In this document: piece after piece, positions 2,968 to 63,715 of the stretch | Layout: every line of letters starts with the position of its first letter | Numbering within the stretch: the first letter of the stretch is position 1 | From: Pseudomonas phage sp. 30-2 | Strand: one strand, 5' to 3' | Sequence record: LC727697.1 | Length of the DNA stretch: 64,000 nt | Translations under genes and position numbers: made by a program | The notes under the pieces: model-generated | The model's input: only the letters and a program-made list of their open reading frames with translations | The model's database searches: none | What the model was told of the DNA's origin: nothing

Positions 2968-2977
2968 AATTGTCCTA

Positions 2978-3008
2978 CAAAATAAAAAGCCGCGCAAAAG
3001 CACGGCTT
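2978..3008 (-). terminator. Hairpin plus U-run terminator between the 99-aa gene and the polymerase gene.
   Basis: Minus-strand aagccgtgcttttgcgcggctt followed by tttattttg. Confidence 0.45.
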
Positions 3009-12920: not shown

Positions 12921-15900
12921 TTACCACCCAAATATCACATATGCATGCGTAGGCTGAAGAGGACCATAACTTTGGGCTCCAGTAGTTGATACCCTGCACT
13001 GGAATCCTGATAATTTTCCAGTTCCTGTCCCAAATGGATTTTCAGTAGTTGTAAGCTCTAACGTATGCGGATGACTAGTAGTATCTTGCATTTTTAATAC
13101 ATATCTGCCTTGTGTTACTAAGTAACCATACCACATCCACCCAGCAGGCGGGTATGGTCTATTTGCAAATACTAAATCTAAAGTAAGATTATTATTTGCA
13201 ACATTATCTACTATAGTGTATGATATGTTAGGCGAACACTCAATTGTACCTATTAAATTACCAGGGGTATAATTGATTTTTAACCATTCGCCGGGGAAGC
13301 CGCCCGGAGACGGACTAGTACCGCTTTGATCTCCAGGAATCCACTTTCCTAGTGCTGCACTATATATGAGTACTTGACCGTCAGTAGGTGCAGTAGATGT
13401 ATCTACATCATTTAAATCACTTATATTTTCTGGAATAGAAGGTAAATTAGTTAAGTCGTTGTAGTCTCCAGTTGTAGCAACAGTAGATAATCCTGTTATA
13501 CTACTAGCAGAAATAGACTGAACATATTCTACTGAATTCCCGGTTGAGTTCCATTTTAAGAATGCGTTCGGAATAGCAGAATTATCCGTGTCGTTCAACC
13601 CAACCAAGCTAAAGCTATTATTTACGGGTATACTAGGTGTATTTAAAATATCATCATAATCGATTTGTGTATTAATCCACAAATTTTGTGTATTGTCATA
13701 CGATAATACTTGATTGTTAGTAGGAGTAGTTAAGTTAACGTCAGTTAATGATGCTAGTGTGCTCGAACCGCTTCCAGCATTGCCTGCCAACCAATACGTA
13801 CCGTTGTATACTAAAGCCTGACCTGTTACAGGAGGTGTAACTAAATTCACATCGGTTAAGTCGTCTAACATAACTGGTATGTTAGGTGTATTAGTTAAAT
13901 CGCTATAATCACCGGTAGTAGCAACAGTAGCCAAACCAGAAATAGATTCTGAAGGTATTGATTGTACATAAGATATAGATGTTCCTTGTGCATTCCATTT
14001 TAAAAATCCATTTGGTAGGGAAGGAGTATCAGTATCTGATAATCCAATAAATGTTCCTATATTAGAAGGTTTATCTAATAAGTCATTATAACTACCAGAA
14101 GTAGCAACTACAGATAAAGTGGGTAGACCTTGGAGTTGACTATATGATAACTTAGAAGAAGACCATGATGACCCGTTAGCTACTAACACATTCCCCGAAG
14201 TAGGAGTGGCACTAGATACATCAGTTAAATCTTCAAGCGACTGGTTACCTGTTCCAGACCCGTCTTGACCCTTGAGTGCAATAATACCCCAAATAGAAGA
14301 ATCGGTAGGCAAAATACCAGTAACAGGACCGTTGCCAGGACTAACAATGTATGAAGATCCTCCATAACTAACAACGTCTTGGTCTTGATAAGTTTCCGAA
14401 TTATTATATTCATTTTTGTAAGTAAAACCACTGCCTGTTCCTCCAGAGCCAGCTAACGCTAATATACCCCATTTAGATTGGTCAGTAGGGGTGATTCCTG
14501 TAATAGGTCCTTGCCCGTCTAACACTACATAAGATGAACCGTTATAATAAACTACATCTTTATCTACATATTCGGTATTAGAATCATAAGTTCCCTTATA
14601 AGTAAAGAATGATCCGTCTTCACCTTTTAGTGCTAGTATATTCCAATTTAAGTTTGTACTGCTAGGCGGAATAGAAATATCGCCGCCAGCTACTTCAGCA
14701 ACACATATATAACTAGAACCAGCATAACTTACTGCGTCGTTTATATTATAACTAGTTTCTTCCCATTCGCCGCGCCAGGTTATGAGTATAGTAGTTCCAC
14801 CGGACGATACTGTTATAAATGAGAGATTTCCATTTCCGTCTGTAGCTAAAACTTGACCGCTCGTTCCGTCAGTTGTAGGCCAAGATAGTTCATTTAAATA
14901 TAAATTGCTACCTGTTAATTTTAAACTAGTTTCCGATATTATTTCCGGAGATTGACCTTCGACGACAATCTTACCGCTGCCACCGAGAATGACATTTACA
15001 TTTCCGGATCCAGGTCCGGTTTTTAAAACTAGCTCGTCTACTAATTCTTCAGTATTAATATACGTATTACCGTCTGTACTAAAAATAGCAGTAGGATCAC
15101 TTGTTCCGCCGCCAGTCGATGGCGTAGTAGGAACCCATGTGCTAGAAGAGGAATTATATGTTAGAACCTGGCCATTAGATACACCACTGACATTCACATC
15201 TACTAAATTGGATAATAAGCCAGTTGTTGCAACATTGGCTAATCCTGTTATAGCAGACGAAGGTATTGAAGTAACATATTCTATTTCTGTACTTAAATTG
15301 TTCCATTTTAAAAACCCATTTGCTTCCGGTATATCGTTAGTATCGGATAAACCTAAGAATGTAAATGAATCGTTTTGCGGTATAGTAGGAGTATTTGACA
15401 AATCGTTGTAATTTATTACAGAACCGATCCATTGTCCTGTTCTAAAAACTAGTACACTTCCTTCTTGAGTAGAAGCACTGACAGAAACATCTGACAAATC
15501 ACCTAAATGTGTAGGAATAACGGGTGTGTTTATTAAATTATTAAAATCTACAGATCCGTTATACCAGGTTGATCCATTAAATAGCAGTGTTTGGTTTATT
15601 GAGGGTGTTGTAATAGCAACATTAGATAAATCGTCTAACGAAATAGAACTACTGGCAGGCATACCCACCCATTTTGTTCCGTTAAATTGTAGTACATATC
15701 CGGCTATAGTACCGGCAGTGTCTACATCATCTAATCCACTTAATGTGTTTGATATAGACGGAAGATTAGATAAATCATTGTAGCTAAGTTTTCTGTTTAC
15801 CCAGCCTGTGTTGTCAAAAACAAGGGTTTGACCGTTAGTTGGACTAGCTACAGAAACGTCTACTAAGTCGTCTAGTCTTTTAACTTCGGCTCCCCCGCCT

Positions 15901-23720: not shown

Positions 23721-25940
23721 TTAAACTACAGTTTGGTCTATTTTCTTTTTAGCTTTAGTAGCAGGGGCAATTGCTTGTATAACTACAACTTCGTCTGCTA
23801 CTACCCTGACTTCTGCGTGACCGCCATTTTTAAGATCGCCAAGTAGCATCAGCTTTGACAGCGGCAACTTGACTTTCTCTTGGAACAGCCTCGCGAGCGG
23901 CCGGGCTCCCATCTTAGGATCATATCCATCTGTTGCTAATTTTTGACGTGCTTCTTGGGTAAGGATCAACGATACGCCTTTTTCTAGTACACTTGCTTGC
24001 ACTTTAGCAAACTCAGTGTCTACAATCTTAGACATTTCGTTAATAGTGAGCGCAGAGAACTTAACAATGCCGTCGAGCCTGTTCCGGAATTCAGGCGCAA
24101 ATCCTTTTGTAACTGCGCTATCTATTGCACCGTCGTTAAAATTATTTCCAAATCCAATTGATGCTTTAGCAGCTTGAGCAGCGCCGGAGTTAGATGTCAT
24201 TAGTAGCAAAACGTTACCAAAGAATACAGTTTTGCCAGTTGACGAAGTTAGCCGGGCGTCATCCATCACCTGAAGGAACGTACTAAATACCTTCGGGTGT
24301 GCTTTTTCGATTTCGTCTAGCAACAAGATGCAGTTGGGATTTTTTTCAATCTCAGAGATTAACTGCCCTGCGCCAGCTTCACCTTCGCCGTGCCCTACAT
24401 ATCCGGGCGGCGCGCCCAGCAATCGGGCGACGCTATGCTGTTCTTGGTATTCAGACATATCGAACCGCACTAAAGGAATACCCATATGTTGGGATAGTTT
24501 TTTTGCCAAGAACGTTTTGCCAGTACCGGTCGGACCCACTAATAAGAAGTTACCAATCGGCTTATTGGCATCTCGAAGTCCTGCTTTGTGTACCATTACT
24601 GCTTCGCAGAGCTTGTTAATAGCTTCGTCTTGCCCGAACACATCGTGTTTGAGATTACCTTCTAGACGAGCAATGGTGTCGTTTTCGGTGTTATCCAACA
24701 TTTCCGGACGCATATGAGCTAATTTAGCTACAGTTTCTATGACCATACGCTCGGTAATAGTAGAGATCCCTGCTAATTTAGCTCTGGCGCCGACCAGGTC
24801 TATTGCATCGATTGATTTGTCGGGCTGGTGCCGAGTTTTGATGTATCGTTCGGTCAAATCGACTGCTAGATCTAGAGTCCCTACGTCGTATTTGACGCCA
24901 TGGAACTCTTCGTAATATTGCTTTAATCCGGCAACTATTTTTTTAGTGTCACCTACACTAGGCGGCGGAACATCCACTTTTTGGAACCGGCGCATTAACG
25001 CCCGATCTTTTTCGAAGTGTGTACTATATTCGTCGTAGGTAGTTGCGCCTATGCAACGAAGTGTTCCTTTTGCTAATTCTGGCTTGAGCAGGTTAGCAGC
25101 GTCTACCGACGAGCCATTACTTGCACCAGCGCCCATGATCATATGTATTTCGTCGATGAAGACGATGGCATTTTTCATTGCTTTTAGTTCGTCTAGTAGC
25201 GCTTTCATGCGCTCTTCGAACTCGCCGCGATATTTAGTGCCTGCCATCATCGCGCCGATATCGAGTGAAATAACTTGTTTGTCAGAAATTGCTTCGGGCA
25301 CCTCACCATTGACGATTTTCATCGCCAACCCTTCGGCAATTGCTGTCTTACCCACACCTTCTTTGCCGGTAAGAATGCAATTGTTTTTTCGCCGGCGGGC
25401 AAGGGCTTCGATAACTTCTTCTAGTTCAGTTTCCCGGCCGATAACCGGATCGATTTTGCCCTCAGATACTTCGTCGTTAAGATTGCGAGTAAACGACTTT
25501 ATAAGGGATTCTGCTTCTGCAGATTTCTTCGCTTCAGTTACTACAGCAGTAGTAACACCGTAGTGCGCGAGAAGCTGGCTTGCATTGCAACTGGTGTCTT
25601 TGATGAGTGCATCGAGCATATCGACATACGTCATTGCTTTGTTAGGATCTAATGCAATTTTAGTTGCCAATTGCTGGCACCAGCGACTAAGAGAGGGACT
25701 GATATCAATATTCATATCAGTTATGTGTCGGGATTTTCCCAATTGGGTAACAAGGAAATCAGATACTGCTTTAGTTAATTGATCCGGGTCTGCATTGCAG
25801 TTTTTAACACAGTCCTTTACTTCGTCGTATCCTAATAAAACATATAATACATGATCTGAAGTAATGGCTTCGTGTTGGTGACTTACTGCAAGTTTTTTGG
25901 CTTCAGTAAGTACAGTATTCAGTTTCTTTTGGCTATCCAT
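23721..25940 (-). CDS. clpA: ClpA-like AAA+ unfoldase (Clp_N domain plus two AAA+ modules).
   Basis: 739 aa. N-terminal Clp_N repeat. Walker A motifs ILTGKEGVGKTAIAEG (D1) and LLVGPTGTGKTFLAKK (D2). No ClpB middle domain. IGF docking tripeptide (KASIGFGNNF). The ATG at 25940 was verified. GC content is markedly higher than surrounding genes. Confidence 0.85.
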   Translation of the reverse strand: MDSQKKLNTVLTEAKKLAVSHQHEAITSDHVLYVLLGYDEVKDCVKNCNADPDQLTKAVSDFLVTQLGKSRHITDMNIDISPSLSRWCQQLATKIALDPNKAMTYVDMLDALIKDTSCNASQLLAHYGVTTAVVTEAKKSAEAESLIKSFTRNLNDEVSEGKIDPVIGRETELEEVIEALARRRKNNCILTGKEGVGKTAIAEGLAMKIVNGEVPEAISDKQVISLDIGAMMAGTKYRGEFEERMKALLDELKAMKNAIVFIDEIHMIMGAGASNGSSVDAANLLKPELAKGTLRCIGATTYDEYSTHFEKDRALMRRFQKVDVPPPSVGDTKKIVAGLKQYYEEFHGVKYDVGTLDLAVDLTERYIKTRHQPDKSIDAIDLVGARAKLAGISTITERMVIETVAKLAHMRPEMLDNTENDTIARLEGNLKHDVFGQDEAINKLCEAVMVHKAGLRDANKPIGNFLLVGPTGTGKTFLAKKLSQHMGIPLVRFDMSEYQEQHSVARLLGAPPGYVGHGEGEAGAGQLISEIEKNPNCILLLDEIEKAHPKVFSTFLQVMDDARLTSSTGKTVFFGNVLLLMTSNSGAAQAAKASIGFGNNFNDGAIDSAVTKGFAPEFRNRLDGIVKFSALTINEMSKIVDTEFAKVQASVLEKGVSLILTQEARQKLATDGYDPKMGARPLARLFQEKVKLPLSKLMLLGDLKNGGHAEVRVVADEVVVIQAIAPATKAKKKIDQTVV

Positions 25941-28962: not shown

Positions 28963-29559
28963 TTAGTTTACAATATTTTCTATTTCGGTCCAAAGTTTGT
29001 CTATATCAATCCTTATAATATTTTTAGAAGTTTTTACATTTGTATTATGAGGATGAAGTGCAAGAACAGTTTTTATACCGAGTTTATGACCTAATTCTGC
29101 GTTACCCGGATGGTCTTCTATCCAGAGAATTGCATCTTTAGAATATTTCTTTAACAATTCTTCTTTACTTAGTCCAGGCTCTATGCAATGGACTTCATCA
29201 AACACTTCTTTGCCGAATACTTCAGAGATATTGTATTTTCTATTATCTAGTGCATGTTCTTTCCCACTTAAGCTACTAATAGCAACAAAACTAAATCCTT
29301 TATCTTTTAATTTATTAATAGCATCTACTGCGTTATCCATGGGAGACAGATATCGCATTGCACTAGAATTATTAAACTCTGTTATAAGTTCATTAATGGC
29401 ATCTTTATCTAATTTTAAGTCAGATGCCATATCATACGTAGATGCAACAATATTACTATCTTGCGGTATAAGGTTTTTAGATTTCAAAAAATTTAAAAAT
29501 TCGGGATACCATTTTAAAAGTACACCGTCAACATCTACTAGTATAAGATTATTGCTCAC
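28963..29559 (-). CDS. HAD-superfamily phosphatase/nucleotidase.
   Basis: Motif I LILVDVDGVLLKW (DxDG). 198 aa. A terminator hairpin lies downstream. Confidence 0.6.
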   Translation of the reverse strand: MSNNLILVDVDGVLLKWYPEFLNFLKSKNLIPQDSNIVASTYDMASDLKLDKDAINELITEFNNSSAMRYLSPMDNAVDAINKLKDKGFSFVAISSLSGKEHALDNRKYNISEVFGKEVFDEVHCIEPGLSKEELLKKYSKDAILWIEDHPGNAELGHKLGIKTVLALHPHNTNVKTSKNIIRIDIDKLWTEIENIVN

Positions 29560-29911
29560 TAGATTCTGTCTCGCTAATTTTGGATTCTGTAGTTTCTTCG
29601 CTAGCAGTATTTGATTCTTTTATTGCAAACGGATTCTCTTTACCTAAAAGGCTATAAAATTGCCCAAACTGAATGGGATATTTTTCAGCAACATATTTTG
29701 CAATTTCGTTATATGACGCATTGCCTTCTGTTCTATTTTTATATACAGTTTCTGCCTTTGCATCTAAAATAACAGACGATTGAAGCAACACAGAATTCGG
29801 CAACTTATTAAGAAATGAACACTCTTCTGTTACTTCCCATTGGTCTTTAGTGTATTTCTTTAGTGAATATCGATGAGTCAGTACAATGTATGCTCGTTTA
29901 GTTGAAACCAT
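29549..29911 (-). CDS. Hypothetical protein; possibly the clamp-loader small subunit (gp62-like), by position only.
   Basis: Lies immediately downstream of, and start/stop-coupled to, the gp44-like gene, as the 44-62 pair is in T4. No sequence motif was recognised. Confidence 0.35.
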   Translation of the reverse strand: MVSTKRAYIVLTHRYSLKKYTKDQWEVTEECSFLNKLPNSVLLQSSVILDAKAETVYKNRTEGNASYNEIAKYVAEKYPIQFGQFYSLLGKENPFAIKESNTASEETTESKISETESSEQ

Positions 29912-29912
29912 A

Positions 29913-30842
29913 TTAAAGTCCTCGTCTGTTTCGTTCTAATTCTATAATTGTTGCTGATAAGTTTATTTCCGGATCAGCAACTAATGAGTGTTTAGATAAG
30001 CCATTTCTAATAATAAGAATTGCACTATCTTTTTGATCATCAGTGTCACCCCAAAGATCTAAATTATCATACATAAACCTATACATATCATCATACTCTT
30101 CTTGTCGTATTTGTTTACATATAAGTTGCCTTGCTTCGGAATATTTTCCATTTTTAAACAGAGCAATTGCACTAATCTTATAATCTTCTGTTGTTACACT
30201 AGATGCTTGCGGTATTTCTAATACACCACTAGTTGTATTCTGCTGAAGTACATTAATGCATTTTCTAAGATCAGGATACGTAGATTTTACGAAATCGTCT
30301 AACACTTCTAATTCAAAACTAATGCCTTCATTTAAAAGTATAGTCGCCATTCGTGTAGTAAATTCGACTTCATCTACTTTTTCTACGTGGAAACTCTGAC
30401 AACGACTATGTAATGCAGGGATAATTTTATTTTGATAATTACCTGTAAGAATAAATCTACAAGAATTTGAATATTGCTCTAATATTCCACGAAGTGTTGC
30501 TTGTGCATTTATACTTAAATGGTCACACTCGTCTAGTATAATATATTTAAAATCACCGAACGGTAATGTAGAAGCAAACCCACTAACTGTGTCCCTAATA
30601 AAATCTACACCGTTATCTCTAGATGCGTTAATGAACAGACAATCGGCATCCATTACTCCTAATTCATTTAACAGTAACCTAGCTAAAGTAGTTTTGCCTA
30701 CACCGGGTGTACCGGTAAGCAAAAGATTTCCGATACTTTTATTGTCTATCCAACTTTGTACTTGCTTCTTTTGTTGTTCACTAGTAAATACGTAATCTTC
30801 TACTTTTTTAGGACGATATTTTTCTGTCCATAATTCTTTCAT
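29913..30842 (-). CDS. g44: Clamp-loader ATPase subunit (T4 gp44 / RFC small-subunit-like).
   Basis: Walker A LLLTGTPGVGKTTLARLL. DEAD-like ILDECDHLS. 309 aa, typical for the gp44 family. Confidence 0.8.
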   Translation of the reverse strand: MKELWTEKYRPKKVEDYVFTSEQQKKQVQSWIDNKSIGNLLLTGTPGVGKTTLARLLLNELGVMDADCLFINASRDNGVDFIRDTVSGFASTLPFGDFKYIILDECDHLSINAQATLRGILEQYSNSCRFILTGNYQNKIIPALHSRCQSFHVEKVDEVEFTTRMATILLNEGISFELEVLDDFVKSTYPDLRKCINVLQQNTTSGVLEIPQASSVTTEDYKISAIALFKNGKYSEARQLICKQIRQEEYDDMYRFMYDNLDLWGDTDDQKDSAILIIRNGLSKHSLVADPEINLSATIIELERNRRGL

Positions 30843-30855
30843 TAGATATTATGCC

Positions 30856-31182
30856 TTAATTATAAACTCGTGTTTCTACTATTATATTGTCTTCTGGCTC
30901 TTCATCGGATATCAATAAAATAGAATCTATTTCAGCACAGTAATATACATTTTGCTCTGTAGTGTGTACTGGACGGGACCAGCGACCGTGCTTAATTAAC
31001 ACCCATTGGCCTACAACAAATGTATCTTTTTGATCTTCTCTTATATGGGATACTTGTGCCCACCGAGCGCGGATGCCGTGTGACTTACCGTTATCATCTG
31101 TAAAAATAATACCGCCTACAGTGCGTTCGCCTTTTTTAAAATTAGTTACAATAATGTTGTTATGAAGTGGTATTATATTCAT
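30856..31182 (-). CDS. GroES/Cpn10-like co-chaperonin (T4 gp31 analogue).
   Basis: The N-terminus MNIIPLHNNIIVTNFKKGERTVGGIIFT parallels GroES [28 protein letters not shown]. The C-terminal half is divergent. Confidence 0.55.
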   Translation of the reverse strand: MNIIPLHNNIIVTNFKKGERTVGGIIFTDDNGKSHGIRARWAQVSHIREDQKDTFVVGQWVLIKHGRWSRPVHTTEQNVYYCAEIDSILLISDEEPEDNIIVETRVYN

Positions 31183-31183
31183 T

Positions 31184-31525
31184 TTAAATATCTTTATTAC
31201 TATCTTCTGTTATAGTAATGTTCCCTTCGTCATCTATAATTTCTTTCTTACGTTTTTCTTTTGTAACTTTTTTAGATTGTACTACTTCTTCGTGCTCATC
31301 TTCTTCATCTAGATTGGGTTTGATAGAAGCTGTTGCAGTTTCTGTTTGATGTTCAGAATGGTATCTGTGAACTCGCTCGGCAGCAGTTTCTATAATTTCG
31401 CCGCCTGGACCCAACTTGTCGCCTTTTGCGTTAACATTCATGTTTCCTACTGCAACTACATTTTCATTTTGAATACGGAGTGAATCCATATCTACTAATA
31501 CGCCATTGTTAGATTTTTTTTGCAT
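31184..31525 (-). CDS. Hypothetical acidic protein.
   Basis: ORF only. Glu/Lys-rich C-terminus. Confidence 0.4.
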   Translation of the reverse strand: MQKKSNNGVLVDMDSLRIQNENVVAVGNMNVNAKGDKLGPGGEIIETAAERVHRYHSEHQTETATASIKPNLDEEDEHEEVVQSKKVTKEKRKKEIIDDEGNITITEDSNKDI

Positions 31526-31537
31526 AATTAACTCCTT

Positions 31538-32047
31538 TTATTTTAGAAATTCTTTTATATCTAAATTATATTTTAGTGAATCTACTTTATGCACGCCTAT
31601 TAAAAATAATACATAAGACGCAACACTAGACCCGCGACCCACACCCCAGATAAGGCAATTTTCCCTCATATATGATACAAAATATATCATAAATCTTAGC
31701 ATATTGTATAAACCGCGTTCTTGAAAGAGTTTCAGTTCCATTAATACTCTTTCTTTTTGTGCATCAGTGTCACATAAATTTAATATAAAAGAATCTATAT
31801 CTATATTTTTAAATTCCGGTGGCATAAACCATTCTGAAGACATTTTTTCATGAAATTCATCAACAGAACAAGTTAAGTGTTTCGTCGTATTAAGTTTATG
31901 CAACCCTAACACTTGTTCTACGTGCATATTATACTTGTTTATGTCTTCGTTGTCAACAAAGAGTGGATCTCCCAGCTGGTTCCCTTGCAAAAGGATATTT
32001 ATGCCTGTTGTTATAGTTATTTCTTTTCTATTATATTTGTCGTTCAT
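31538..32047 (-). CDS. DnaE (DNA Pol III alpha) palm-region fragment; truncated. Likely a remnant pseudogene or repurposed fragment.
   Basis: ERVLMELKLFQERGLYNMLRFMIYFVSYMRENCLIWGVGRGSSVASYVLFLIGVHKVDSLKYNLDIKEFL aligns with the DnaE hallmark segment (RLxYELxVIxxMGFxGYFLIVxDFIxWAKxNxIxVGPGRGSAAGSLVAYxLGITxxDPLxxxLLFERFL). The ORF stops just before the catalytic PDFDxDF aspartates would occur. No PHP domain is present upstream. Confidence 0.5.
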   Translation of the reverse strand: MNDKYNRKEITITTGINILLQGNQLGDPLFVDNEDINKYNMHVEQVLGLHKLNTTKHLTCSVDEFHEKMSSEWFMPPEFKNIDIDSFILNLCDTDAQKERVLMELKLFQERGLYNMLRFMIYFVSYMRENCLIWGVGRGSSVASYVLFLIGVHKVDSLKYNLDIKEFLK

Positions 32048-32738
32048 TTAAAACATCAACTATGTCTACAACATTGTCTTCAGTTTCTACATTTATACCT
32101 AATTCTTCTTTTATTGCAGCTTCGAACTTATCGTTAATATCATTTAACACATGTCTTGTACAAACAGACATTTGTACTTCTTCTAATGTACGATTTTCTA
32201 AATCAGGAACATAATCAAATGTATCTACATCAACCCTATCCCACCACGGCACGTCCCATATAGGTTTTTCATCTTCATTAGGAAACATATCGTCTATTGT
32301 AGGAAGATCATATATTTCATCTACATGTTTTCCGAATGTGTAACTAAAATTACTATCGTCTGATATAATAATGTCACCTATAGATAGCTTACCATCTGTT
32401 ATAGATGAAATCTTAGAATGAAAAACCATTGCTAGTGTTTTTAAATCTTTAGGAAAACTAGGAACACCTATTATGTTATTTTCTGCTATATCATACAACA
32501 TAGAAATTCTAGTATCGCTCATATCGACGATAATACTGCCTTCTACGTAATTAGAAATCCAGTAATCTATTATATTTTTTTGAACTTCAAAATCAATTAA
32601 ATCTTCACCGTTGCTTGCATCCTTTGCAGGAACGAATCCAATTATAATTTCCCATTCAGTTTCTTTCAATACAGAAGTAAGAACGTGTGTTTTAAATTTT
32701 CTTTTAAAAGAATAAAACCCTTGTACGTCAGCAAACAT
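32031..32738 (-). CDS. Hypothetical protein (235 aa).
   Basis: ORF only. Acidic. Confidence 0.45.
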   Translation of the reverse strand: MFADVQGFYSFKRKFKTHVLTSVLKETEWEIIIGFVPAKDASNGEDLIDFEVQKNIIDYWISNYVEGSIIVDMSDTRISMLYDIAENNIIGVPSFPKDLKTLAMVFHSKISSITDGKLSIGDIIISDDSNFSYTFGKHVDEIYDLPTIDDMFPNEDEKPIWDVPWWDRVDVDTFDYVPDLENRTLEEVQMSVCTRHVLNDINDKFEAAIKEELGINVETEDNVVDIVDVLNERQI

Positions 32739-33035
32739 TTATTTGTTCCTTTTTGTTATACGGTCTAATGCAGTTGGGTCACCCGATACTTTACCTAAAT
32801 TAATAGGAGCGAGGGGATCTATACCTTTTGCCATATTTTCTTTTGTTAATTGCTCATTACGTGCCTTGGTCATCCTGTATTCGTATTCTTCTTCTAGTTG
32901 TGCCAGTGTTATTTCTACACTGTGTATTAAGGTATGATGGCCAGCCATATGTGCTTGATTTAAATATTCCCTTGCTTTCATCAATCTAGACTGTAATTCT
33001 TCATCTGTTAATTTAGACCAATCGCCGTTAATCAT
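32739..33035 (-). CDS. Hypothetical protein (98 aa).
   Basis: ORF abutting the previous gene. Confidence 0.45.
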   Translation of the reverse strand: MINGDWSKLTDEELQSRLMKAREYLNQAHMAGHHTLIHSVEITLAQLEEEYEYRMTKARNEQLTKENMAKGIDPLAPINLGKVSGDPTALDRITKRNK

Positions 33036-33063
33036 ATAGAAATTCCTTTTCCTATATTATATG

Positions 33064-33094
33064 GCAAAAAAAGGGCACCTGTCAAGTGCCCTTT
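33064..33094 (-). terminator. Hairpin terminator downstream of the GC-rich membrane-protein gene.
   Basis: gcaaaaa-aagggcac-ctgtcaa-gtgccctt. Confidence 0.6.
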
Positions 33095-33110
33095 TACAAC
33101 TATGCAGGTC

Positions 33111-33611
33111 TTAGCTGCGTCCGGAAAAGTGCTTGAGCCAGTCGTCCAACTCATCTTCACTAGCATCGGCAACTGTTTGCCGTTTTGAATCCGAACTACT
33201 AGTACCTACTAGGACTTGTTCTCCGGACTTATATGCTTCCGTCTCTGCTAGCTGTCGCTCTAGGTTCTCTCGGAGCACAGCAGCAGAAACAGCTCGGTAA
33301 GTAGACGGTTTGCCAGTTAGTTCTAACTCAACTAGGCCGAAGGTCATAATCCCTATCAAGCCACGGAGAAAAAATGCAGCGTTGAGCCACATAGTATTTC
33401 GCCAATGAATTAGATGATGCTTAGTAAAACGAATACTGCAAATTTTTTCCTTTAATTCGGCGAAAAAATATTTCAGTCGCAATACTCGCATTTTACGAGC
33501 AATAGCTTTTTTCTCTTTTTCCCCGATTACCTTGCGGTGCGCTAGTGGATCTGCATTTGCATCGGTAGCTTGGGTATTTACAGAAGTATTTTTTTGGTTC
33601 ACAGTTGCCAT
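33111..33611 (-). CDS. Hypothetical membrane-anchored protein on a GC-rich island.
   Basis: One TM helix (MWLNAAFFLRGLIGIMTFGLV). Local GC is about 50% versus about 30% background. A terminator hairpin lies downstream. Confidence 0.5.
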   Translation of the reverse strand: MATVNQKNTSVNTQATDANADPLAHRKVIGEKEKKAIARKMRVLRLKYFFAELKEKICSIRFTKHHLIHWRNTMWLNAAFFLRGLIGIMTFGLVELELTGKPSTYRAVSAAVLRENLERQLAETEAYKSGEQVLVGTSSSDSKRQTVADASEDELDDWLKHFSGRS

Positions 33612-33633
33612 TGCATGTCTCCAGCGGCGGTTA

Positions 33634-33936
33634 TTAAAGTATATGCGTAGTATAAAGCGTATAATGTACGTCGTCTAGTGGCAATTTATATGTACTAATA
33701 TAGGTAATATTTGTAAGTTCTATAATTCTGTTTAGTATGTCTGAGTATGTCGGTTTCGCATCGATCCCGATGGCTTCATAATCTTTAAACCAAGCCATTT
33801 TAGTAAATATTATAGAATCTTCTGTAGAATATAATTCTTGTATTGTTCGTTTTATTTTTGCCACAAGGAAAAATACATTTCCGTCTTCGCCGCCTATATC
33901 TACAGAATACTTTGATAGGTCCCAGTGTTTAGTCAT
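33634..33936 (-). CDS. Hypothetical small protein.
   Basis: First of five serially overlapping small ORFs. Confidence 0.4.
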   Translation of the reverse strand: MTKHWDLSKYSVDIGGEDGNVFFLVAKIKRTIQELYSTEDSIIFTKMAWFKDYEAIGIDAKPTYSDILNRIIELTNITYISTYKLPLDDVHYTLYTTHIL

Positions 33937-34264
33937 TTGTCGTTATATGAAAAAGTAAACCAGTGCGCCATACATATACTCTAGTAAATTCAGATCCAAC
34001 ACTTAGTGTAAAATACACAGCATCGTCATGATTCTTAAAAGCAATATATTTGAAGTCATTGGCGTCTACAGCTACTCCAACAAATTCAGAAGTCCGCCGC
34101 ATATCTTTTATTATATTATCTATTTTTCTTCTATATGAATCTATTTCATCATTAGAGTAATCCTTACAAGCAGGCGACCATCTACTATAATAAACAGGTT
34201 TAGTGCTCATGTACATCAAGGGATTATCTTCGGATACTAAATAATCGGAATATAATTTTTTCAT
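33929..34264 (-). CDS. Hypothetical small protein.
   Basis: Start overlaps the downstream gene by 8 nt. Confidence 0.4.
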   Translation of the reverse strand: MKKLYSDYLVSEDNPLMYMSTKPVYYSRWSPACKDYSNDEIDSYRRKIDNIIKDMRRTSEFVGVAVDANDFKYIAFKNHDDAVYFTLSVGSEFTRVYVWRTGLLFHITTND

Positions 34265-34518
34265 GTTCTTTCTGATATTCCATTAATAAATATATATGGA
34301 TATTTTATCCTAGCTATTATTTCAGATTCGGGTGAATTAAAATAAAATACTTCGTATCGTTCACCGTCTTTAAACGTGTCGTGCCACCCTATATCACTTC
34401 TAAATTCAGTAAATAGCCATTTTCTAATTTTTCTTGTATTATTATAATCAGATTTAATTGTAATTTTTAGCATCTTTCTTTTCAAAAAGTTGCCTAAGGT
34501 TTCAGTGACAAAATCCAC
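34261..34518 (-). CDS. Hypothetical small protein.
   Basis: 4-nt ATGA-type overlap with its neighbour. Confidence 0.4.
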   Translation of the reverse strand: MDFVTETLGNFLKRKMLKITIKSDYNNTRKIRKWLFTEFRSDIGWHDTFKDGERYEVFYFNSPESEIIARIKYPYIFINGISERT

Positions 34519-34778
34519 GAATCTAGAAATTTTTTATAAATAATTTCATCACTAGCAGTAGCAAATGATGCATCTATATTTGATTGATCCCTTAAATTTA
34601 CTATATGAGTACGCCCATATTTTGTTAGAATTTCTATTCTAATTTTTCCAGATATAAAAGAAACTACATACTCTTCTGTGGATTTCTGGTACTTAACTTC
34701 AGCAATTGTGTTTAGTGGTATTATTGTTGAGTCTTCCGTGACTAATACTTTCATTCCCTTACCTTTTATTATAAACAA
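34494..34778 (-). CDS. Hypothetical small protein.
   Basis: Overlapping small ORF. Confidence 0.4.
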   Translation of the reverse strand: MFIIKGKGMKVLVTEDSTIIPLNTIAEVKYQKSTEEYVVSFISGKIRIEILTKYGRTHIVNLRDQSNIDASFATASDEIIYKKFLDSWILSLKP

Positions 34779-35038
34779 AGTTTTATTAGAACAAGAATAT
34801 GTTCAGCATCCATGTCGGTATTGTACACACGAACCGGAAACGGCTTTTTAGTTCTAACAAACCGGGCAGAACGCTGCGAGAGAATCCGTTTAATAGAATA
34901 CCGCGGCGATCCTGCCGACCAATTTTTTCTGCCATGACCAAACTGACTGTTCATAAAAGAAACAAATTTATTAAACTGCTCAACGTCGTCGAAGTCGATT
35001 TCGAACTTAACATCCTTGGCGTTGCTGTTCGTAGACAT
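34769..35038 (-). CDS. Hypothetical small basic protein (GC-rich).
   Basis: ORF with elevated GC. Overlaps the previous ORF by 10 nt. Confidence 0.4.
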   Translation of the reverse strand: MSTNSNAKDVKFEIDFDDVEQFNKFVSFMNSQFGHGRKNWSAGSPRYSIKRILSQRSARFVRTKKPFPVRVYNTDMDAEHILVLIKLCL

Positions 35039-35085
35039 TGCGTTGATACCCGGTAGTTATGTTGATTTGTACTTATAATATATTA

Positions 35086-35523
35086 TTACTGCGCATGTTG
35101 CAACATATATTTTGTCCAAGCCAAGATAATTGCGTGTTTCACTATAGCATAATTTTGAAAATAGAATTCCTCACCTAAACATTCTCTATAATTATCAGGT
35201 GACACATCAACCCCATACCATGCAGTTCCACCCTGTGTTTTGCAATTTATATAAAGCTGTGCTTGGTTATCTGAGATTATATCCACAATTCCTACGTCGC
35301 AATCGACCGTAACCTTTTCAGAAAGTTCTAATATATTGCATAACGGTACAATCCTTCCGCATACTGTTTTGACAAAACATATGTGTTCTGCTACATCAAA
35401 ATGAGTCATTAACGGATTATTATATAATTTAAATAGATCACTAGATACGTCTCTTTGACCACTTATATCTTTATAAATATTGTTATATATCGGATTCTTT
35501 CCGAACTTCGGATTCATAGACAT
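35086..35523 (-). CDS. Hypothetical protein (145 aa).
   Basis: ORF only. Confidence 0.4.
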   Translation of the reverse strand: MSMNPKFGKNPIYNNIYKDISGQRDVSSDLFKLYNNPLMTHFDVAEHICFVKTVCGRIVPLCNILELSEKVTVDCDVGIVDIISDNQAQLYINCKTQGGTAWYGVDVSPDNYRECLGEEFYFQNYAIVKHAIILAWTKYMLQHAQ

Positions 35524-35890
35524 TAAATTTTCCTCCCGGATACCGTGCCTCTAGTTTTTCCACGTTCATGCCGATTATTTCATCTAGGGAAATATCGAGT
35601 GCAATACAAGCCGAAACAACATAGAACATTACGTCGCCTAATTCTCGTTTTAGATGATATACCACATCATCTGTATATTCTTTTCCTTGATATTTAAGTT
35701 TCTTAACAATTTCCCCAAATTCACCCGATTCTGCTAGCATACCCTGGCTTGCAGTATCTAATGTTTCTATCTTACAGCCATTTGCTTTGAGCTTTTTTAG
35801 TGCATCAATATATGCATCGAAATTAGAACTCGGTTCACTAAGTAGTTTCTGTACAAATTTAGTATAATTATTGTTTGTGCTCATTGTCAT
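35483..35890 (-). CDS. mazG: MazG-like nucleoside triphosphate pyrophosphohydrolase.
   Basis: Motif KRELGDVMFYVV (EExxD/ELGDxxxY MazG helix) plus EFGEIVKKLKYQGKEYTDDV. Confidence 0.7.
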   Translation of the reverse strand: MTMSTNNNYTKFVQKLLSEPSSNFDAYIDALKKLKANGCKIETLDTASQGMLAESGEFGEIVKKLKYQGKEYTDDVVYHLKRELGDVMFYVVSACIALDISLDEIIGMNVEKLEARYPGGKFNVYESEVRKESDI

Positions 35891-36344
35891 CCCCTGACGT
35901 TAATACTGTTACGTTTGCTTGATTAAATAGCCATTTAGATACTTTTAATTCTTCTGTCCATCGGTCATTATATCCAGTGTCTTGTATTAATATAGATTCG
36001 TCTATTATAACATGTGTTATACCGGACTGAATAATAGCCCTTGCACAAGATGCACACGGATGATGAGTTGTATATAAAACACATCCTTTTAATGATACAG
36101 TGGCTTGATATATTGCATTTCGCTCTGCGTGCTCGCACGCTAATAACTTAAACTCTCTATTATTATAAAGAGATTCGTCGTCATCTACTCCCTTCGGAAA
36201 TCCATTAAACCCAAAACTAACAGGTTCTCCGATTTTAGTTACAATTAATGCACCCGTTTTAGTAGATGGATCTTTAGACCAAGACGCTATTAATTTAGTT
36301 AATTCTATTAACCTGGTTTTCCATTTTTTATCTAATATGTTCAT
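35868..36344 (-). CDS. cd: dCMP deaminase (zinc-dependent cytidine/deoxycytidylate deaminase).
   Basis: Zinc-binding motifs HAERNAIYQA (H-A-E) and PCASCARAI (PCxxC). Confidence 0.8.
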   Translation of the reverse strand: MNILDKKWKTRLIELTKLIASWSKDPSTKTGALIVTKIGEPVSFGFNGFPKGVDDDESLYNNREFKLLACEHAERNAIYQATVSLKGCVLYTTHHPCASCARAIIQSGITHVIIDESILIQDTGYNDRWTEELKVSKWLFNQANVTVLTSGDDNEHKQ

Positions 36345-56679: not shown

Positions 56680-58965
56680 TTATATTTTGCAAGAATCGCA
56701 ATCTTCTTCGTCAGCAATAGCAGATGAAATATCAGCCTCTACGTCGTCTGTTTGACCATCGTATGTATTATGGTAATAAAGTGTTTTTAAACCCATTTTA
56801 TATGCATATAGCAGATCTTTGATCATTACTGATTTCGGAATTTCATCATTCTCGTAGTGTTCTGGATTATAAAATGTATTTGTAGAAATTGCCTGATCTA
56901 GATATTTCTGTGCAACTGCTACTAGATTTAAATAACCAGTACAACTCTTCATATCCCATAACAGTTCGTATCTATTCTTTAGTTTAGGGAATCCAGGTAC
57001 CACTTGCTTAAGTCTACCTTCGCCCGATCCTTTTACACTAATAAATGCTCTGGGCGGTTCTATGCCATTAGTTGCATTACTTATTTGCGCAGATGTCTCC
57101 GATGGCATAAAACTAGATAAATTACTATTATACATGCCATATTGTGCTACTTGTTCTCTCAGTTCATCCCATGGCATTCTTTGTACATTTTTAACTAATT
57201 GGTCTACACTTGTTTTATAAGTATCTATAGGGAAAATATTCCTGCTATATTTTATATTATCCCATCCCGGTATTGTAGCATTTTTTTCTTTTGCTATATC
57301 CGAACTAGCTTTAATTAAATAATACTGGAATGCTTCCATTAACTCATCCCATGCTTCTAATCCGCTGTTATCAGTATATTTGAAATTATTTTTAGCTAAC
57401 CAATATGCAAGATTAATAACTCCTATTCCCAACGGACGATATTTAAGTGTAGAATTTTTTGCGGCAGGAATCGGATAATTTTGATAATCTAGTAACTCGT
57501 TTAAACCTCTCACTAATATTTCGGCAGGTCGTTGCAAATCTTCTTTTTTCTTAACTAAACCTAAATTAATTGCTGCAAGTGTACATAACGCTATTTCACC
57601 TTCTTCATCATATACATGTTTAAGAGGTTTAGTTGCAAGTGTAATTTCGGTACACAAATTTGTCATTTTAATCGGTGCAAATTCGGGAATAAATGCACCA
57701 TGATCATTTGCATGATCAATATTCATTAAATATATACGGCCAGTTTCTTTTCGTTCTGTTATAAACTTATCAAATAGTTCTTCAGCACTAATAGTATGCT
57801 TAATAATTCCCTTAGTATTTTCGTATTTTACATAAAGACGTTCAAATTCTTTTTGATCATCATAAAACGCTTTTTGTAAATCAGGCACTTCGTTCGGACT
57901 GAATAATGTTATATTACCATTTTCTAACAATCTAGAATATGCAAATCTGTTAAACAGTATGCAATAATCCATGTGTCTGACCGAATTCTCTTCAGTTCCT
58001 TTATTATTTTTAAGATTAAGAATTGTTTCAATTTCTAGATGCCAGTAGGGAGCAGAAAGTGTAGCGGCGCCGCCTCGTACGCCGCCTTGAGAACAAGATT
58101 TAACAGCAGCCTGGAACATTCTATAAAACGGAGTTACGCCAGTATGTTTTGTATCACCATTTCTTATCTTTGCCCCTAATGCACGTATATGACCGCCGTG
58201 TATGCCTATCCCTGCCTTTTGACTAATATATTTAACAATAGAACTAGTTGTAGCATTTATGGAATCTAAGCTATCATCAGTTTCGATTAATACACATGAA
58301 CTAAATTGTTTTACAGAGGTTCTAAGACCTGCCATAATAGGTGTTGGCAAGGAAATTACACCAGTACTTAATAAATCATAACATTCTTTTACTATAGCAA
58401 CTCGTTCTTTTCCTGTATATTTATGGAACATAGTTGCTGCAACTAAAAGATTTAGGTATTGAGGGGTTTCAAATACTTTCTTAGTAACTCTATCTTGAAC
58501 TAAATATTTTCCACGAAATTGTTCCATACCTGCATAGGCATGGTTAAAATCCCTCGAATGATCTATTACATTATCGAAATGATCCCATTCTTCCTTTGTA
58601 TACCAATCTAACAACTCTTTTGTATAATATCCTAATTTGATATTTCTTTGTACTAAATCATAAACAGGAATGGTATCATACTGACCTAATGCTTCTTTTC
58701 TAATTTGAAACAGTCGAAGCCTTGCTGCAACCCATTGGTAATTAGGACTTTCTTCAGAAATTAATTCATGTGCAGCAGCAATTAAAATTTCATGAATAGT
58801 ATCAGTTGTGATGCCGGGGTATAATTGCAATTGTGCCTTCATTTCTAAATGAGACACAGATACACCTGTTAGACCCTCGGTTGCCCAATATAAAATTTTA
58901 TGAATTTTTTCTGGATCAAATTCTTCTTTGGTACCGTCACGTTTAATAACAAAAATCCCTTTCAT
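56680..58965 (-). CDS. nrdA: Ribonucleotide reductase class I alpha subunit.
   Basis: N-terminal ATP-cone (VIKRDGTKEEFDPEKI). Active site NLCTEI. C-terminal CDSCKI redox pair. 761 aa. Confidence 0.85.
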   Translation of the reverse strand: MKGIFVIKRDGTKEEFDPEKIHKILYWATEGLTGVSVSHLEMKAQLQLYPGITTDTIHEILIAAAHELISEESPNYQWVAARLRLFQIRKEALGQYDTIPVYDLVQRNIKLGYYTKELLDWYTKEEWDHFDNVIDHSRDFNHAYAGMEQFRGKYLVQDRVTKKVFETPQYLNLLVAATMFHKYTGKERVAIVKECYDLLSTGVISLPTPIMAGLRTSVKQFSSCVLIETDDSLDSINATTSSIVKYISQKAGIGIHGGHIRALGAKIRNGDTKHTGVTPFYRMFQAAVKSCSQGGVRGGAATLSAPYWHLEIETILNLKNNKGTEENSVRHMDYCILFNRFAYSRLLENGNITLFSPNEVPDLQKAFYDDQKEFERLYVKYENTKGIIKHTISAEELFDKFITERKETGRIYLMNIDHANDHGAFIPEFAPIKMTNLCTEITLATKPLKHVYDEEGEIALCTLAAINLGLVKKKEDLQRPAEILVRGLNELLDYQNYPIPAAKNSTLKYRPLGIGVINLAYWLAKNNFKYTDNSGLEAWDELMEAFQYYLIKASSDIAKEKNATIPGWDNIKYSRNIFPIDTYKTSVDQLVKNVQRMPWDELREQVAQYGMYNSNLSSFMPSETSAQISNATNGIEPPRAFISVKGSGEGRLKQVVPGFPKLKNRYELLWDMKSCTGYLNLVAVAQKYLDQAISTNTFYNPEHYENDEIPKSVMIKDLLYAYKMGLKTLYYHNTYDGQTDDVEADISSAIADEEDCDSCKI

Positions 58966-58973
58966 ATATTTCC

Positions 58974-59408
58974 TTAGTTTAGTTCTCTTATGTGTTCTTT
59001 ACTGTAAATGTCTATTACAGTTATATTTGTTAGATTATTTAATTCTATTACATCTCTCGGATAATAATTTAATACCATACCATCTACAACAGGTACCATA
59101 AATCTTTGTTCTGTATCATCTATAACATACATTTTAATATTTGCATCAGGGAATACAGAAATAACAGTGTAGTACATCATTAATGATATAGAATTTTCAC
59201 AAAATTTAATATCAGCAAGAATGTCCCACGGATCTGGCCAAGTATTAGGATTATAAAAATCAATGGTTCTAGGTCCTAATGGCATATCTGCAAAAAAGTT
59301 TGCAATTTCTAGTAATGCTTGATTAATGGGTAGAGTTTTTAAGGAGAGTCTATGCTGTCTCCAGGCAGCAATCCGTTTATCTGCCCGGAGATTATTCCAA
59401 TCTGTCAT
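58974..59408 (-). CDS. Hypothetical protein (144 aa).
   Basis: ORF only. Confidence 0.4.
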   Translation of the reverse strand: MTDWNNLRADKRIAAWRQHRLSLKTLPINQALLEIANFFADMPLGPRTIDFYNPNTWPDPWDILADIKFCENSISLMMYYTVISVFPDANIKMYVIDDTEQRFMVPVVDGMVLNYYPRDVIELNNLTNITVIDIYSKEHIRELN

Positions 59409-59424
59409 TTATTATTTCTATTTG

Positions 59425-60624
59425 TTAATTCTGAACTGATTCGTTATCCCACGAAATCCAACGCTTTGTAGTTAATTTAAGAAGTACCCTCGACGGAAAA
59501 TTATGCCTGTATGTTATATTTACTGTGTTAGGTGCTACATATTCTCCACTAAAATCTACATCAGCGTCGTATCCCACCGAAGATCTATGCTCAACAGATG
59601 TGTCTGAAACAACTACAGTTTCTGATCCTTTAGATAAAATAATATTTAATGTTCCGGTTTGAACAAACCTGCCATCGCTGCCCATAACTGGGCCTTGCAT
59701 GTCATCAAAACTTATAGAATAATCTATATTAAATGTATCAGATACCGAACCATCAAACGTCATTGGACTAGTTTCGTAGTTACCGCCGTTTATTATATCT
59801 ATAGTTTTTACTAAAGTAAACGAATTAGAAGGCTCTAATTCGTATGTTATAGGACTATTTACTATTACATCTGTACTACTAGTAGTTTTAAAGTATTCTG
59901 TTAGTATTTCTACGTTTTGTTTTGTAGTTACATATGCTTTGTCACTGTCTGTAGTAATATATTCATTTATTAATACACTTAAACTAGCAGATTCGTATAC
60001 AGTATCAGTAAATAATATCCCTGCGTCCATTACTATACCGTTATTGTATGCAGAGTTTACAGTATTATCTATAATATACGAATTGTTAGCTATAGTTGTC
60101 AGATTAAACGAATCAGGCGGTTGGCATCCTGCAAAAAATTTAAACGTATACTGATCAGAGGAATCAATAGTCCACGAATACATCAATGTATATCTAATAT
60201 CAGAGGCGCTACCTGTTGACTGGAGTACAGACGTCTTAACACTACGAATAATCTCTATATTTCGTTCGTATTCATTAATGCTTTCTCTGTTAGTATCAGA
60301 AACATAATATAGCTGCGGGAATTTAGCCAATTCTGCTAGATTTTGCTTTTCAGCATCAGTTAATGTAGTTGGCTCCGATACAAAAGTAAAAATATTGTGT
60401 AATAACGTTTGGTTAACTAAATCTTGGGATCCAAGAGGTTCTCCCCTAAACAATTCAACGGCTGCTACTGCATCTTCGTCAGACACGCCAATAAATAATT
60501 GCTTAGTATCCATACACCAACCGAGTTCTCCCGGTCTTAGTGGTTGCGGCAAGTTAACACGACGACCTCTTCTGTTTTCTATTCGTGCTACTATTATATC
60601 TTGTGTTAAATACGGATCGGCCAT
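59425..60624 (-). CDS. Hypothetical protein (399 aa).
   Basis: ORF only. Confidence 0.45.
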   Translation of the reverse strand: MADPYLTQDIIVARIENRRGRRVNLPQPLRPGELGWCMDTKQLFIGVSDEDAVAAVELFRGEPLGSQDLVNQTLLHNIFTFVSEPTTLTDAEKQNLAELAKFPQLYYVSDTNRESINEYERNIEIIRSVKTSVLQSTGSASDIRYTLMYSWTIDSSDQYTFKFFAGCQPPDSFNLTTIANNSYIIDNTVNSAYNNGIVMDAGILFTDTVYESASLSVLINEYITTDSDKAYVTTKQNVEILTEYFKTTSSTDVIVNSPITYELEPSNSFTLVKTIDIINGGNYETSPMTFDGSVSDTFNIDYSISFDDMQGPVMGSDGRFVQTGTLNIILSKGSETVVVSDTSVEHRSSVGYDADVDFSGEYVAPNTVNITYRHNFPSRVLLKLTTKRWISWDNESVQN

Positions 60625-60655
60625 GCTAAAAATTCCATTTTATTTTGTATTATAT

Positions 60656-61321
60656 TTATGCCAATACTACTTCAGTATAATATCTCATAACATCATCAAA
60701 CCACATATTCTTATATTCAGAATATTCATCTGCTTCTATAATAAATTCCTGAAACATTCCTGTTTGTGTTGCCATAAGTATAACACCAGTAGTTATATTA
60801 GTTCCATACATGATGTTGTGAGCTTCTGCATATGCAACTAATTGCTTAAAATAATTTTCAATCCATTCTTTTTTCCTAACATTTCTTGCATTTTTAAAAT
60901 CTATTATTGATTCTCTATCCTTATATACACCAACTAAGTCTGTAGTACCTGCATATAATTCAGGATAATATAATGGGACTTCAGTACCCCATGCTTCTGA
61001 TAGATGTTTCAGTCCGTTCTGTTTAATTAAACCAAACATCATTTTAGCCATAGGATTTCCGTTAATTTCGGAACTACCGTTAAGAAAATTTTCTAAGTTT
61101 TGGTGCAAATGCGTTCCTGTGTATGAAGACGACTCTGTTATTTTAGCTGCGTTTTCTTCACCTTCCCTTTCACGCCAATCAGTTAGAAATGACTTATCGG
61201 TAACAAAATCTAATATAGTAGTAACAGAAGGCAATAATTTTCCGTCTGGTGTTTTGTATTTTCTACCTGCCGGAGAATCTACACGATCGCAAAAAGTATA
61301 ATTGAATTTTTGTATTAACAT
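60656..61321 (-). CDS. Putative PD-(D/E)xK-family nuclease.
   Basis: GTTDLVGVYKDRESIIDFKNARN contains a D...(D/E)xK-like arrangement (D..IIDFK). Tentative. Confidence 0.35.
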   Translation of the reverse strand: MLIQKFNYTFCDRVDSPAGRKYKTPDGKLLPSVTTILDFVTDKSFLTDWREREGEENAAKITESSSYTGTHLHQNLENFLNGSSEINGNPMAKMMFGLIKQNGLKHLSEAWGTEVPLYYPELYAGTTDLVGVYKDRESIIDFKNARNVRKKEWIENYFKQLVAYAEAHNIMYGTNITTGVILMATQTGMFQEFIIEADEYSEYKNMWFDDVMRYYTEVVLA

Positions 61322-61384
61322 AGCCTGTATTATAATATAAGGCTATAAATATGTCAAGAACAGACAATGAAAATTAGTGGTATA

Positions 61385-63222: not shown

Positions 63223-63258
63223 AGCTAAATTACCTTATAATTTTGTATATATTTATCA

Positions 63259-63714: not shown

Positions 63715-63715
63715 A

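Follow-up and report, generated by a model that had tools for sequence, protein, structure and literature searches.

The window analysed here is a stretch of 64,000 nucleotides from Pseudomonas phage sp. 30-2 (sequence record LC727697.1), and the gene in question is an open reading frame (ORF) of 169 amino acids on its minus strand, which a first-pass annotation had flagged as a truncated palm-domain fragment of DnaE, the alpha subunit of DNA polymerase III (Pol III alpha). The ORF lies in a compact run of genes, between an ORF of 235 amino acids upstream and a small gene of 113 amino acids downstream, followed by the GroES-like and clamp-loader genes that had been recognised as its neighbours from the start (Table 1). 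When window positions 29000-36000 were compared with PA5oct, MIJ3, Paride, Deifobo and other phages, all ten matching records showed 98.4-98.9% nucleotide identity over 7 kb; by this measure the source is a PA5oct-like jumbo myovirus of Pseudomonas aeruginosa. We refer to the product of the ORF as the N-unit, the N-terminal unit of a split minimal Pol III alpha whose C-terminal unit (C-unit, here also called the partner) is encoded by a distant gene. Orthologues of the N-unit carry the label 'hypothetical protein' in PA5oct and 'DNA polymerase' or 'DNA polymerase III alpha' in sister records.

Table 1. Features of the window discussed in the text, and the partner gene as located in PA5oct. E, expectation value of the match; aa, amino acids.
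Feature	Position	Strand	Evidence
Family B DNA polymerase (PolB), N-terminal piece ending in an intein half	556-3003	-	Pfam DNA_pol_B_exo1 (E 2.8e-23), DNA_pol_B (E 1.7e-20) and Intein_splicing (E 2.6e-09); matches in PA5oct
Clamp-loader large subunit (gp44/RFC-like AAA+)	29913-30842	-	phrog_168 (E 2.4e-81); Pfam AAA, DNA_pol3_delta2, Gp44_lid
GroES/gp31-like co-chaperonin, third in the conserved gene run	30856-31182	-	Pfam Cpn10 (E 2.2e-4, 21.6 bits, cut-off 21.1); phrog_931 (E 3.8e-7); phrog_3188 (E 1.3e-5)
Small gene, 113 aa, phrog_14844, function not annotated	31184-31525	-	phrog_14844 (E 3.1e-11)
N-terminal unit of split minimal Pol III alpha (N-unit), 169 aa, ATG start	31538-32047	-	Equivalent to PA5oct EST35_0288 (99.4% identical); phrog_11127
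N-unit residues 95-168: palm helices, first palm strand, GS loop and two helices before the aspartate strand	31544-31765	-	Pfam PF07733
N-unit residues 135-140, GVGRGS: G[GS] motif of the Pol-beta-type nucleotidyltransferase fold, equivalent to E. coli G359-S364	31628-31645	-	Alignment, dnaE numbering
N-unit residues 1-72: N-terminal extension, less conserved, no aligned counterpart in solved Pol III alpha chains	31832-32047	-	Structural alignment covers 70/73-169 only
Upstream ORF, 235 aa, overlapping the start of the N-unit gene by 17 nucleotides	32031-32738	-	No family; best Pfam SepRS_C (E 0.097); no PHROG match
Partner (C-unit), EST35_0220, 200 aa	PA5oct 143938-144540 (outside the window)		phrog_11778 'DNA polymerase' (E 1.7e-63)

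The proposed likeness to a palm segment of DnaE was borne out by profile searches. The N-unit contains WGVGRGSSVASYV...YNLDIKEFLK, and the Pfam family DNA_pol3_alpha (PF07733) matched it with E 4.1e-09 and 36.9 bits, above the gathering cut-off of 23.9, residues 95-168 corresponding to only positions 21-94 of the 260 in the profile. The match to phrog_11127 (E 8.4e-46) took in family positions 13-171 of 171. In a phmmer search against PDB chains, with the ORF read through its stop codon, residues 96-175 aligned with Thermus Pol III alpha 382-461 (E 0.0012) and residues 98-175 with E. coli Pol III alpha 322-399 (E 0.0036). On E. coli numbering, taken throughout from the actual dnaE gene sequence, the phage GRGS corresponds to R362-G363-S364 plus the Gly before them, and the terminal FLK to F391-L392-N393; D401 comes seven residues on. 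Aligned in this way, the N-unit stops one loop ahead of the catalytic aspartate strand, as the first-pass annotation had also noted of its end.

An AlphaFold model of the N-unit, built on an alignment of 120 homologues, reached a predicted local distance difference test (pLDDT) of 90.6, and its residues 73-169 superposed on E. coli Pol III alpha 279-393 with a Z score of 9.2 and a root-mean-square deviation of 2.5 A over 92 aligned residues. Structural re-alignment of the model gave nine entries with Z of at least 2 (10 of 64 chains), all nine of which were Pol III alpha or PolC. The N-terminal extension, residues 1-72, was confidently modelled, and some of its residues contribute to the predicted contact surface with the partner described below.

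The window holds no continuation of the polymerase in any frame, in agreement with the earlier reading of this locus. With the TAA stop read as X, the Pfam match was not extended past profile position 97; profiles of the two halves, run over the six frames of the window, found no DnaE-like sequence apart from the N-unit (best E for the partner family 0.22), and nothing came from a tblastn search of the whole window, flanks included, with E. coli DnaE (best E 0.28). As this last search missed even the N-unit ORF itself, tblastn with DnaE is too insensitive for such sequences and profiles are required. Over the whole PA5oct record, the N-unit was the sole match to PF07733. The earlier statement that no PHP domain precedes the fragment likewise held, as neither the N-unit nor the upstream 235-amino-acid ORF gave a PHP match in Pfam or PHROG, the whole PA5oct genome not having been searched with a PHP profile.

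The nearest candidate for a continuation was the 113-amino-acid ORF directly downstream, which might be reached by stop-codon read-through: in the window it is in frame with the N-unit gene, 12 nucleotides away behind a single TAA, and it starts with VDMD, a candidate catalytic DxD, with G8 and D12 invariant. However, the Pfam match does not carry on across the stop, and the frame relation between the two genes exists in only four of six genomes. The second acidic position of VDMD is variable, with Gly, Ala, His and Glu all seen, and an AAGGAG lies 7 nucleotides ahead of the small ORF's own ATG. Comparison of the small protein with the partner by hhalign gave a probability of 0.1, and the real DxDxD half is located elsewhere. 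The Pfam match, the frames, the variable acidic residue and the hhalign result led us to reject the small ORF as the missing continuation, and we give read-through practically no credence.

The half that carries the catalytic aspartates is encoded far from the N-unit gene. A profile of phrog_405, the family of full-length phage DnaE, matched PA5oct at the N-unit and at a second site, positions 144091-144486 (E 3.2e-4 and 0.02), which falls within the gene of a 200-residue protein (Table 1). The motifs of this protein run in the order of a DxDxD strand (D7, D9 and D11), a KH..GVYF strand, a G..KxD strand, IRP.K and FKK.H..Y, and its family profile aligned in order to residues 413-424 (the DIDID strand), 566-665 and 773-788 of Mycobacterium tuberculosis DnaE1. 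D7, D9 and D11 correspond to E. coli D401, D403 and D405, and D70 to D555 in KFD, as verified on the dnaE sequence. All 120 aligned partner sequences kept D7, D9, D11, K68, D70, R137, P138, K140, K167 and H170. A model of the partner (pLDDT 89.3) aligned over residues 1-200 to C-family polymerases, with Z 9.5 to M. tuberculosis DnaE1 415-835, 9.5 to Thermus Pol III alpha 457-865, 9.0 to PolC 967-1353 and 8.0 to E. coli 396-808; the best 16 structural rows were all C-family polymerases, and the next row fell to Z 3.5. The GS motif and the three catalytic aspartates are not in one polypeptide, the equivalents of D401, D403 and D555 sitting on the partner.

In PA5oct the partner gene lies 43 kb from the N-unit gene. 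Window positions 58000-64000 are collinear with PA5oct 155563-161563 on the opposite strand, and the partner is at least 99% identical in all ten PA5oct-like records, so that in the source genome its gene would be expected about 11.0-11.6 kb past the 3' end of the window. In PA5oct, 121Q and Atu_ph07, a small convergent ORF overlaps the end of the partner gene, and an annotated primase and/or helicase follows 1.3-2.5 kb downstream, with a gene for a virion structural protein intervening in PA5oct and 121Q. The C-terminus of the PA5oct partner consists of an acidic linker and a short tail of aromatic, Leu and Phe residues that resembles the C-terminal end of the phage PolB. As this tail was present in only three of 120 partners, that of PA5oct and those most closely related to it, it is a feature of the lineage and not of the family; it hints at clamp binding by the partner in the PA5oct lineage only.

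On E. coli numbering, the N-unit accounts for residues 279-393 and the partner takes over at about 395, with six residues followed by D7, D9 and D11; judged from the alignments, the break is clean, with neither overlap nor loss between the halves. Neither half had a Pfam intein match, and there are no extra residues at the junction. As an intein is lacking and both halves end at the junction, any assembly must be non-covalent. Prediction of the N-unit-partner complex gave an interface score (ipSAE, interaction prediction score from aligned errors) of 0.87, 0.87 and 0.88 in three runs, compared with 0.37 for the best control, and the predicted complexes had 173-177 contacts, a partner pLDDT of 87 and agreement between runs in at least 96% of contacts. 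In the benchmark for such predictions, 116 of 157 solved complexes and two of 215 mismatched pairs came up to this mark, counts that hold only roughly here as custom alignments were used. The predicted interface includes the GS loop and first palm strand of the N-unit (residues 130-143) and the aspartate strand of the partner (residues 2-14), as would be expected of a rebuilt palm sheet; in the N-terminal extension it also includes residues 2, 5-8, 10, 14-15, 18, 23-28, 63, 66-67, 69-70 and 72.

To what extent the two halves travel together was examined across phage genomes. The partner family, phrog_11778, was present once each in all five further N-unit phages searched (SCTP-2, Slickus01, 121Q, Atu_ph07 and XacN1); with PA5oct and Vibrio phage 2.275.O, which also carry both halves, co-occurrence amounted to seven of seven phage genomes examined, and none of 14 control cellular genomes contained phrog_11778. 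The partner was found in 95 phage records, with genus counts closely matching those of the N-unit, whose own search returned 119 records, among them full-length DnaE genes of unrelated phages. The distance between the two genes ranged from 4.2 kb in RsoM2USA to 224 kb in Phosso. None of 80 viral partner loci had an N-unit within about 4 kb, none of 80 viral N-unit loci had a partner within about 3.5 kb, and no fused form was present among the best 150 of 2735 representative N-unit relatives.

Alishewanella phage Slickus01, with a genome of 141.6 kb, has its halves at 13713-14225 and 25064-25675, 10.8 kb apart. They lie near RFC-like and primase/helicase genes, and a relative of the small downstream gene was not detected there. 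As Slickus01 carries both halves, the split core is not restricted to genomes larger than 200 kb.

The N-unit belongs to a broad family of uniform length. A family profile run against 1.84 billion representative proteins found 2735 representatives at E<=0.001, of which 483 clusters reached E<=1e-30. Among the best 150 of the 2735, all proteins were 157-196 amino acids long, with the match ending 0-8 residues before the C-terminus, and among the best 120 of 5542 near-length relatives the range was 169-182 amino acids; longer versions, for which the first-pass annotation had proposed a comparison with related phages, were not found among the best 150, which share the same end point. In the alignment of 120 sequences, G135, G137, R138, G139, S140, S144, H153 and others were invariant in all 120, and V136 in 119. 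Short homologues were present in phages of Escherichia (121Q and PBECO4), Klebsiella (RaK2), Cronobacter, Erwinia, Xanthomonas, Ralstonia, Agrobacterium (Atu_ph07), Sinorhizobium, Vibrio and Salicola. Gene order around the N-unit was kept from Pseudomonas to Agrobacterium, Vibrio, Xanthomonas and Salicola phages at protein identities of 33-38%: six phage genomes share a run of the N-unit gene, a small ORF and another small ORF at the GroES position, and five of the six then have a clamp-loader gene, which was absent from the examined flank of Vibrio phage 2.275.O. The gene at the GroES position is annotated as a chaperonin in 121Q, Vibrio phage 2.275.O and PA5oct and as head morphogenesis in Atu_ph07, and is unannotated in SCTP-2 and XacN1.

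These data bear directly on the first of the origins suggested for the ORF, a decaying and functionless relic of an ancestral or captured DnaE. Such a relic would account for an N-unit that is only a piece of the palm and lacks the catalytic residues. However, the frame is intact, the length is constant across the family, the motifs are invariant, gene order has been kept between phages of different hosts at 33-38% protein identity, and a matching second half exists. As the N-unit is uniformly short, its motifs do not vary and the complementary gene is found elsewhere in the genome, the gene belongs to a conserved stand-alone family and is not a relic, an origin whose probability we regard as negligible.

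The second suggestion, a domesticated fragment, stood only insofar as the gene appears functional, and a better description is that of a subunit in a minimal Pol III alpha encoded by two genes. In its specific form, the fragment would by itself act as a decoy for the host Pol III holoenzyme or poison it. Nothing we found supports interference with the host replicase, and nothing specific speaks for a decoy beyond residues 1-72, which have no assigned role outside the predicted interface. Against it, the N-unit corresponds to E. coli alpha 279-393, a stretch that we take to be neither PHP domain, clamp-binding motif nor C-terminal domain; the complementary half is present in every one of the seven genomes examined; and the hosts include Gamma- as well as Alphaproteobacteria, where one would expect a decoy to track the enzyme of a single host. 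We consider a decoy very unlikely.

Overall, it is likely that the N-unit is a functional half of a two-protein enzyme, a stripped-down C-family polymerase core of jumbo phages of the RaK2, 121Q and PA5oct types. In this enzyme the N-unit would act as the nucleotide-binding subunit and supply the helices and first strand of the palm together with the GRGS loop. From the partner would come the strand with DxDxD, the strand in which KxD holds the third catalytic aspartate, and a finger core of reduced size. The two chains would join non-covalently into one active site of the Pol-beta fold, to which the N-unit would contribute the GS loop and the partner the three aspartates and the KxD lysine. 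More tentatively, the assembled enzyme may be a DNA-templated polymerase or a related nucleotidyltransferase operating beside the phage PolB. Given a two-protein enzyme, templated DNA synthesis appears about as probable as another nucleotidyl-transfer activity or a structural role taken together. In their gene settings, the N-unit belongs to a clamp-loader module and the partner to a primase-helicase module.

Several observations weigh against a polymerase assembled from these two chains. Together the 169 and 200 residues, 369 in all, span only E. coli ~279-808, with large deletions: E. coli 404-555, which includes the thumb, is cut to 61 residues in the partner, and E. coli 642-752, which holds RRAMGKK, to about 23. 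In published Pol III alpha structures, the thumb and finger segments deleted here have roles in binding deoxynucleoside triphosphates and DNA. Nothing past the equivalent of E. coli ~808 is present, hence no clamp-binding or OB domain, and the two-chain core is devoid of a PHP domain. In 118 of 120 N-units, Glu stands where the bacterial ERFL motif has its Arg (residue 166, window 31550-31552, minus strand). With Foldseek alone, the N-unit model gave 65 matches at E<=10 and none at E<=0.001, Pol III alpha occupying ranks 1-8 at E 0.05-1.7; structural re-alignment of the model was needed. No Pfam family was recognised in the partner, whose gene lies outside the window. The score of the predicted complex may stem from likeness to solved one-chain Pol III alpha; it indicates compatibility of the halves and not binding. 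In the full-text literature, we found the 2021 comparative paper discussed below and no biochemical or genetic test of the split enzyme.

The loss of the thumb, the RRAMGKK finger segment and the PHP, clamp-binding and OB domains, the Glu in place of the ERFL Arg and a literature that holds no activity data for the split enzyme speak for an alternative in which the halves do come together, yet without yielding a DNA-templated polymerase. The product could instead be a nucleotidyltransferase of another kind, such as a terminal or untemplated transferase or a primer-processing enzyme, or else a non-catalytic part of the replisome that has kept the fold. However, the three metal-binding aspartates, the GS loop, the KxD lysine, RP.K and FKK.H are invariant in 120 of 120 sequences, and invariance of both catalytic and finger motifs argues for catalysis and for a retained template-binding core. 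The clamp-loader and primase-helicase settings of the two genes also fit DNA synthesis. We therefore regard a product of this kind as rather improbable, although it is the most serious of the alternatives, and retain the two-protein C-family polymerase core as the preferred reading.

A third protein may be connected to this core. The small gene was found on the same strand and directly downstream of the N-unit gene in all 76 viral loci with at least 400 nucleotides of downstream DNA, the two frames lying a median of 11 nucleotides apart, and it stands directly behind the N-unit gene in all six phage genomes compared. Its product has a conserved N-terminal motif of 45 residues followed by a charged, variable tail; G8, D12, A25, G27, N28, N32, A33, G35 and D36 were invariant in 42 sequences. 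Searches with the small protein found no relative in the PDB at E<=10 and only unnamed viral clusters in the ESM Atlas. Its gene may encode a third component of the split polymerase, or it may be a partner of the GroES-like gene behind it.

A bolder version of the polymerase reading would take the split core to be a working second polymerase of three parts that rides on the phage sliding clamp, in a two-polymerase phage that mixes bacterial-type and archaeo-eukaryotic-type enzymes. The small downstream protein would then be an obligatory accessory subunit, which might replace the missing thumb or DNA-binding parts, and the PolB-like tail of the PA5oct partner would look, from its sequence, as if both polymerases competed for one clamp. 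We think this three-part arrangement improbable.

The wider setting is that of a phage with its own replication machinery. Besides the clamp loader, the window encodes a family B polymerase (Table 1), in context the main replicase of the phage. The original description of the source as a PolB-replicating T4-like phage was right about PolB; the phage has T4-like replication genes but is a PA5oct-like jumbo phage and not a T4-like phage in the narrow sense. At the position occupied by the upstream 235-amino-acid ORF, other phages have genes of differing length, encoding 103-251 amino acids. Contigs from all four RNA-Seq libraries of one study span positions 30800-32800, with 19 differences in 2001 bases, which supports expression weakly as presence in an RNA library is not proven transcription. 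The supplements of the PA5oct omics paper contain no row for the N-unit or partner genes.

A split polymerase of this kind is already known as a computational description. In their passages on this enzyme, Iyer et al. 2021 (Viruses 13:63, PMC7824862) report a 'minimal split Pol III alpha' for the jumbo phages of group 2.2, from a data set that included PA5oct; they suggest that it may cooperate with PolB in the synthesis of one strand or in repair, and propose it as a model of the ancestral form. Their system consists of a stand-alone N-terminal unit that binds nucleoside triphosphates and a distant C-terminal unit that binds Mg and template, beside PolB, in phages of the 121Q, RaK2, Atu_ph07 and PA5oct types (PMC7824862). 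Our locus has the same composition, namely a stand-alone GS-motif unit of about 170 amino acids, catalytic aspartates on a distant unit, PolB and a T4-type clamp loader, and on those published passages it is the same system, with no difference in kind. Relative to them, the present analysis adds the junction in E. coli numbering, the controlled complex prediction, the linkage to the small gene and the tail of the PA5oct partner. The MIJ3 paper makes no mention of polymerase III, DnaE or an alpha subunit, and a 2026 review of jumbo phages none of polymerase III, DnaE or a family B polymerase; in a 2026 survey of bacterial polymerases, the seven passages that touch on split, minimal, truncated or phage forms do not treat split phage polymerases, and jumbo phages go unmentioned.

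The flagged ORF is a member of a widespread, published family and no oddity of one genome, and its 'missing' catalytic residues are on the partner gene outside the window. If active, the split core would reveal what catalysis by Pol III alpha cannot do without, and would provide a tractable model for the origin of such enzymes, as Iyer et al. 2021 (PMC7824862) proposed. The finding also raises the question of why phages with a T4-type PolB keep the split core across hundreds of lineages.

Compared with bacterial Pol III alpha, or DnaE (E. coli, 1160 amino acids; PDB 2HNH and 5FKU), and with PolC, the phage proteins share the GRGS loop, DxDxD, KxD and the finger motifs RP and F.KSH..Y. Whereas the bacterial enzymes are single chains of more than 1100 amino acids with PHP domain, thumb, full fingers, clamp-binding and OB domains, the phage has two chains of 169 and 200 amino acids; to our knowledge, this two-protein core of about 370 residues is the smallest C-family polymerase-like module. 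The split DnaE of cyanobacteria is likewise a C-family polymerase made from two distant genes. Its halves carry intein parts and are spliced to a full-length chain, and its split site is different; the phage halves, in contrast, have no intein match. The family B polymerase of the same phage is also in pieces, as adjacent halves with intein motifs split by a mobile element. Unlike that split, the Pol III-like one is ancient and free of inteins, with its genes lying 4 to 224 kb apart.

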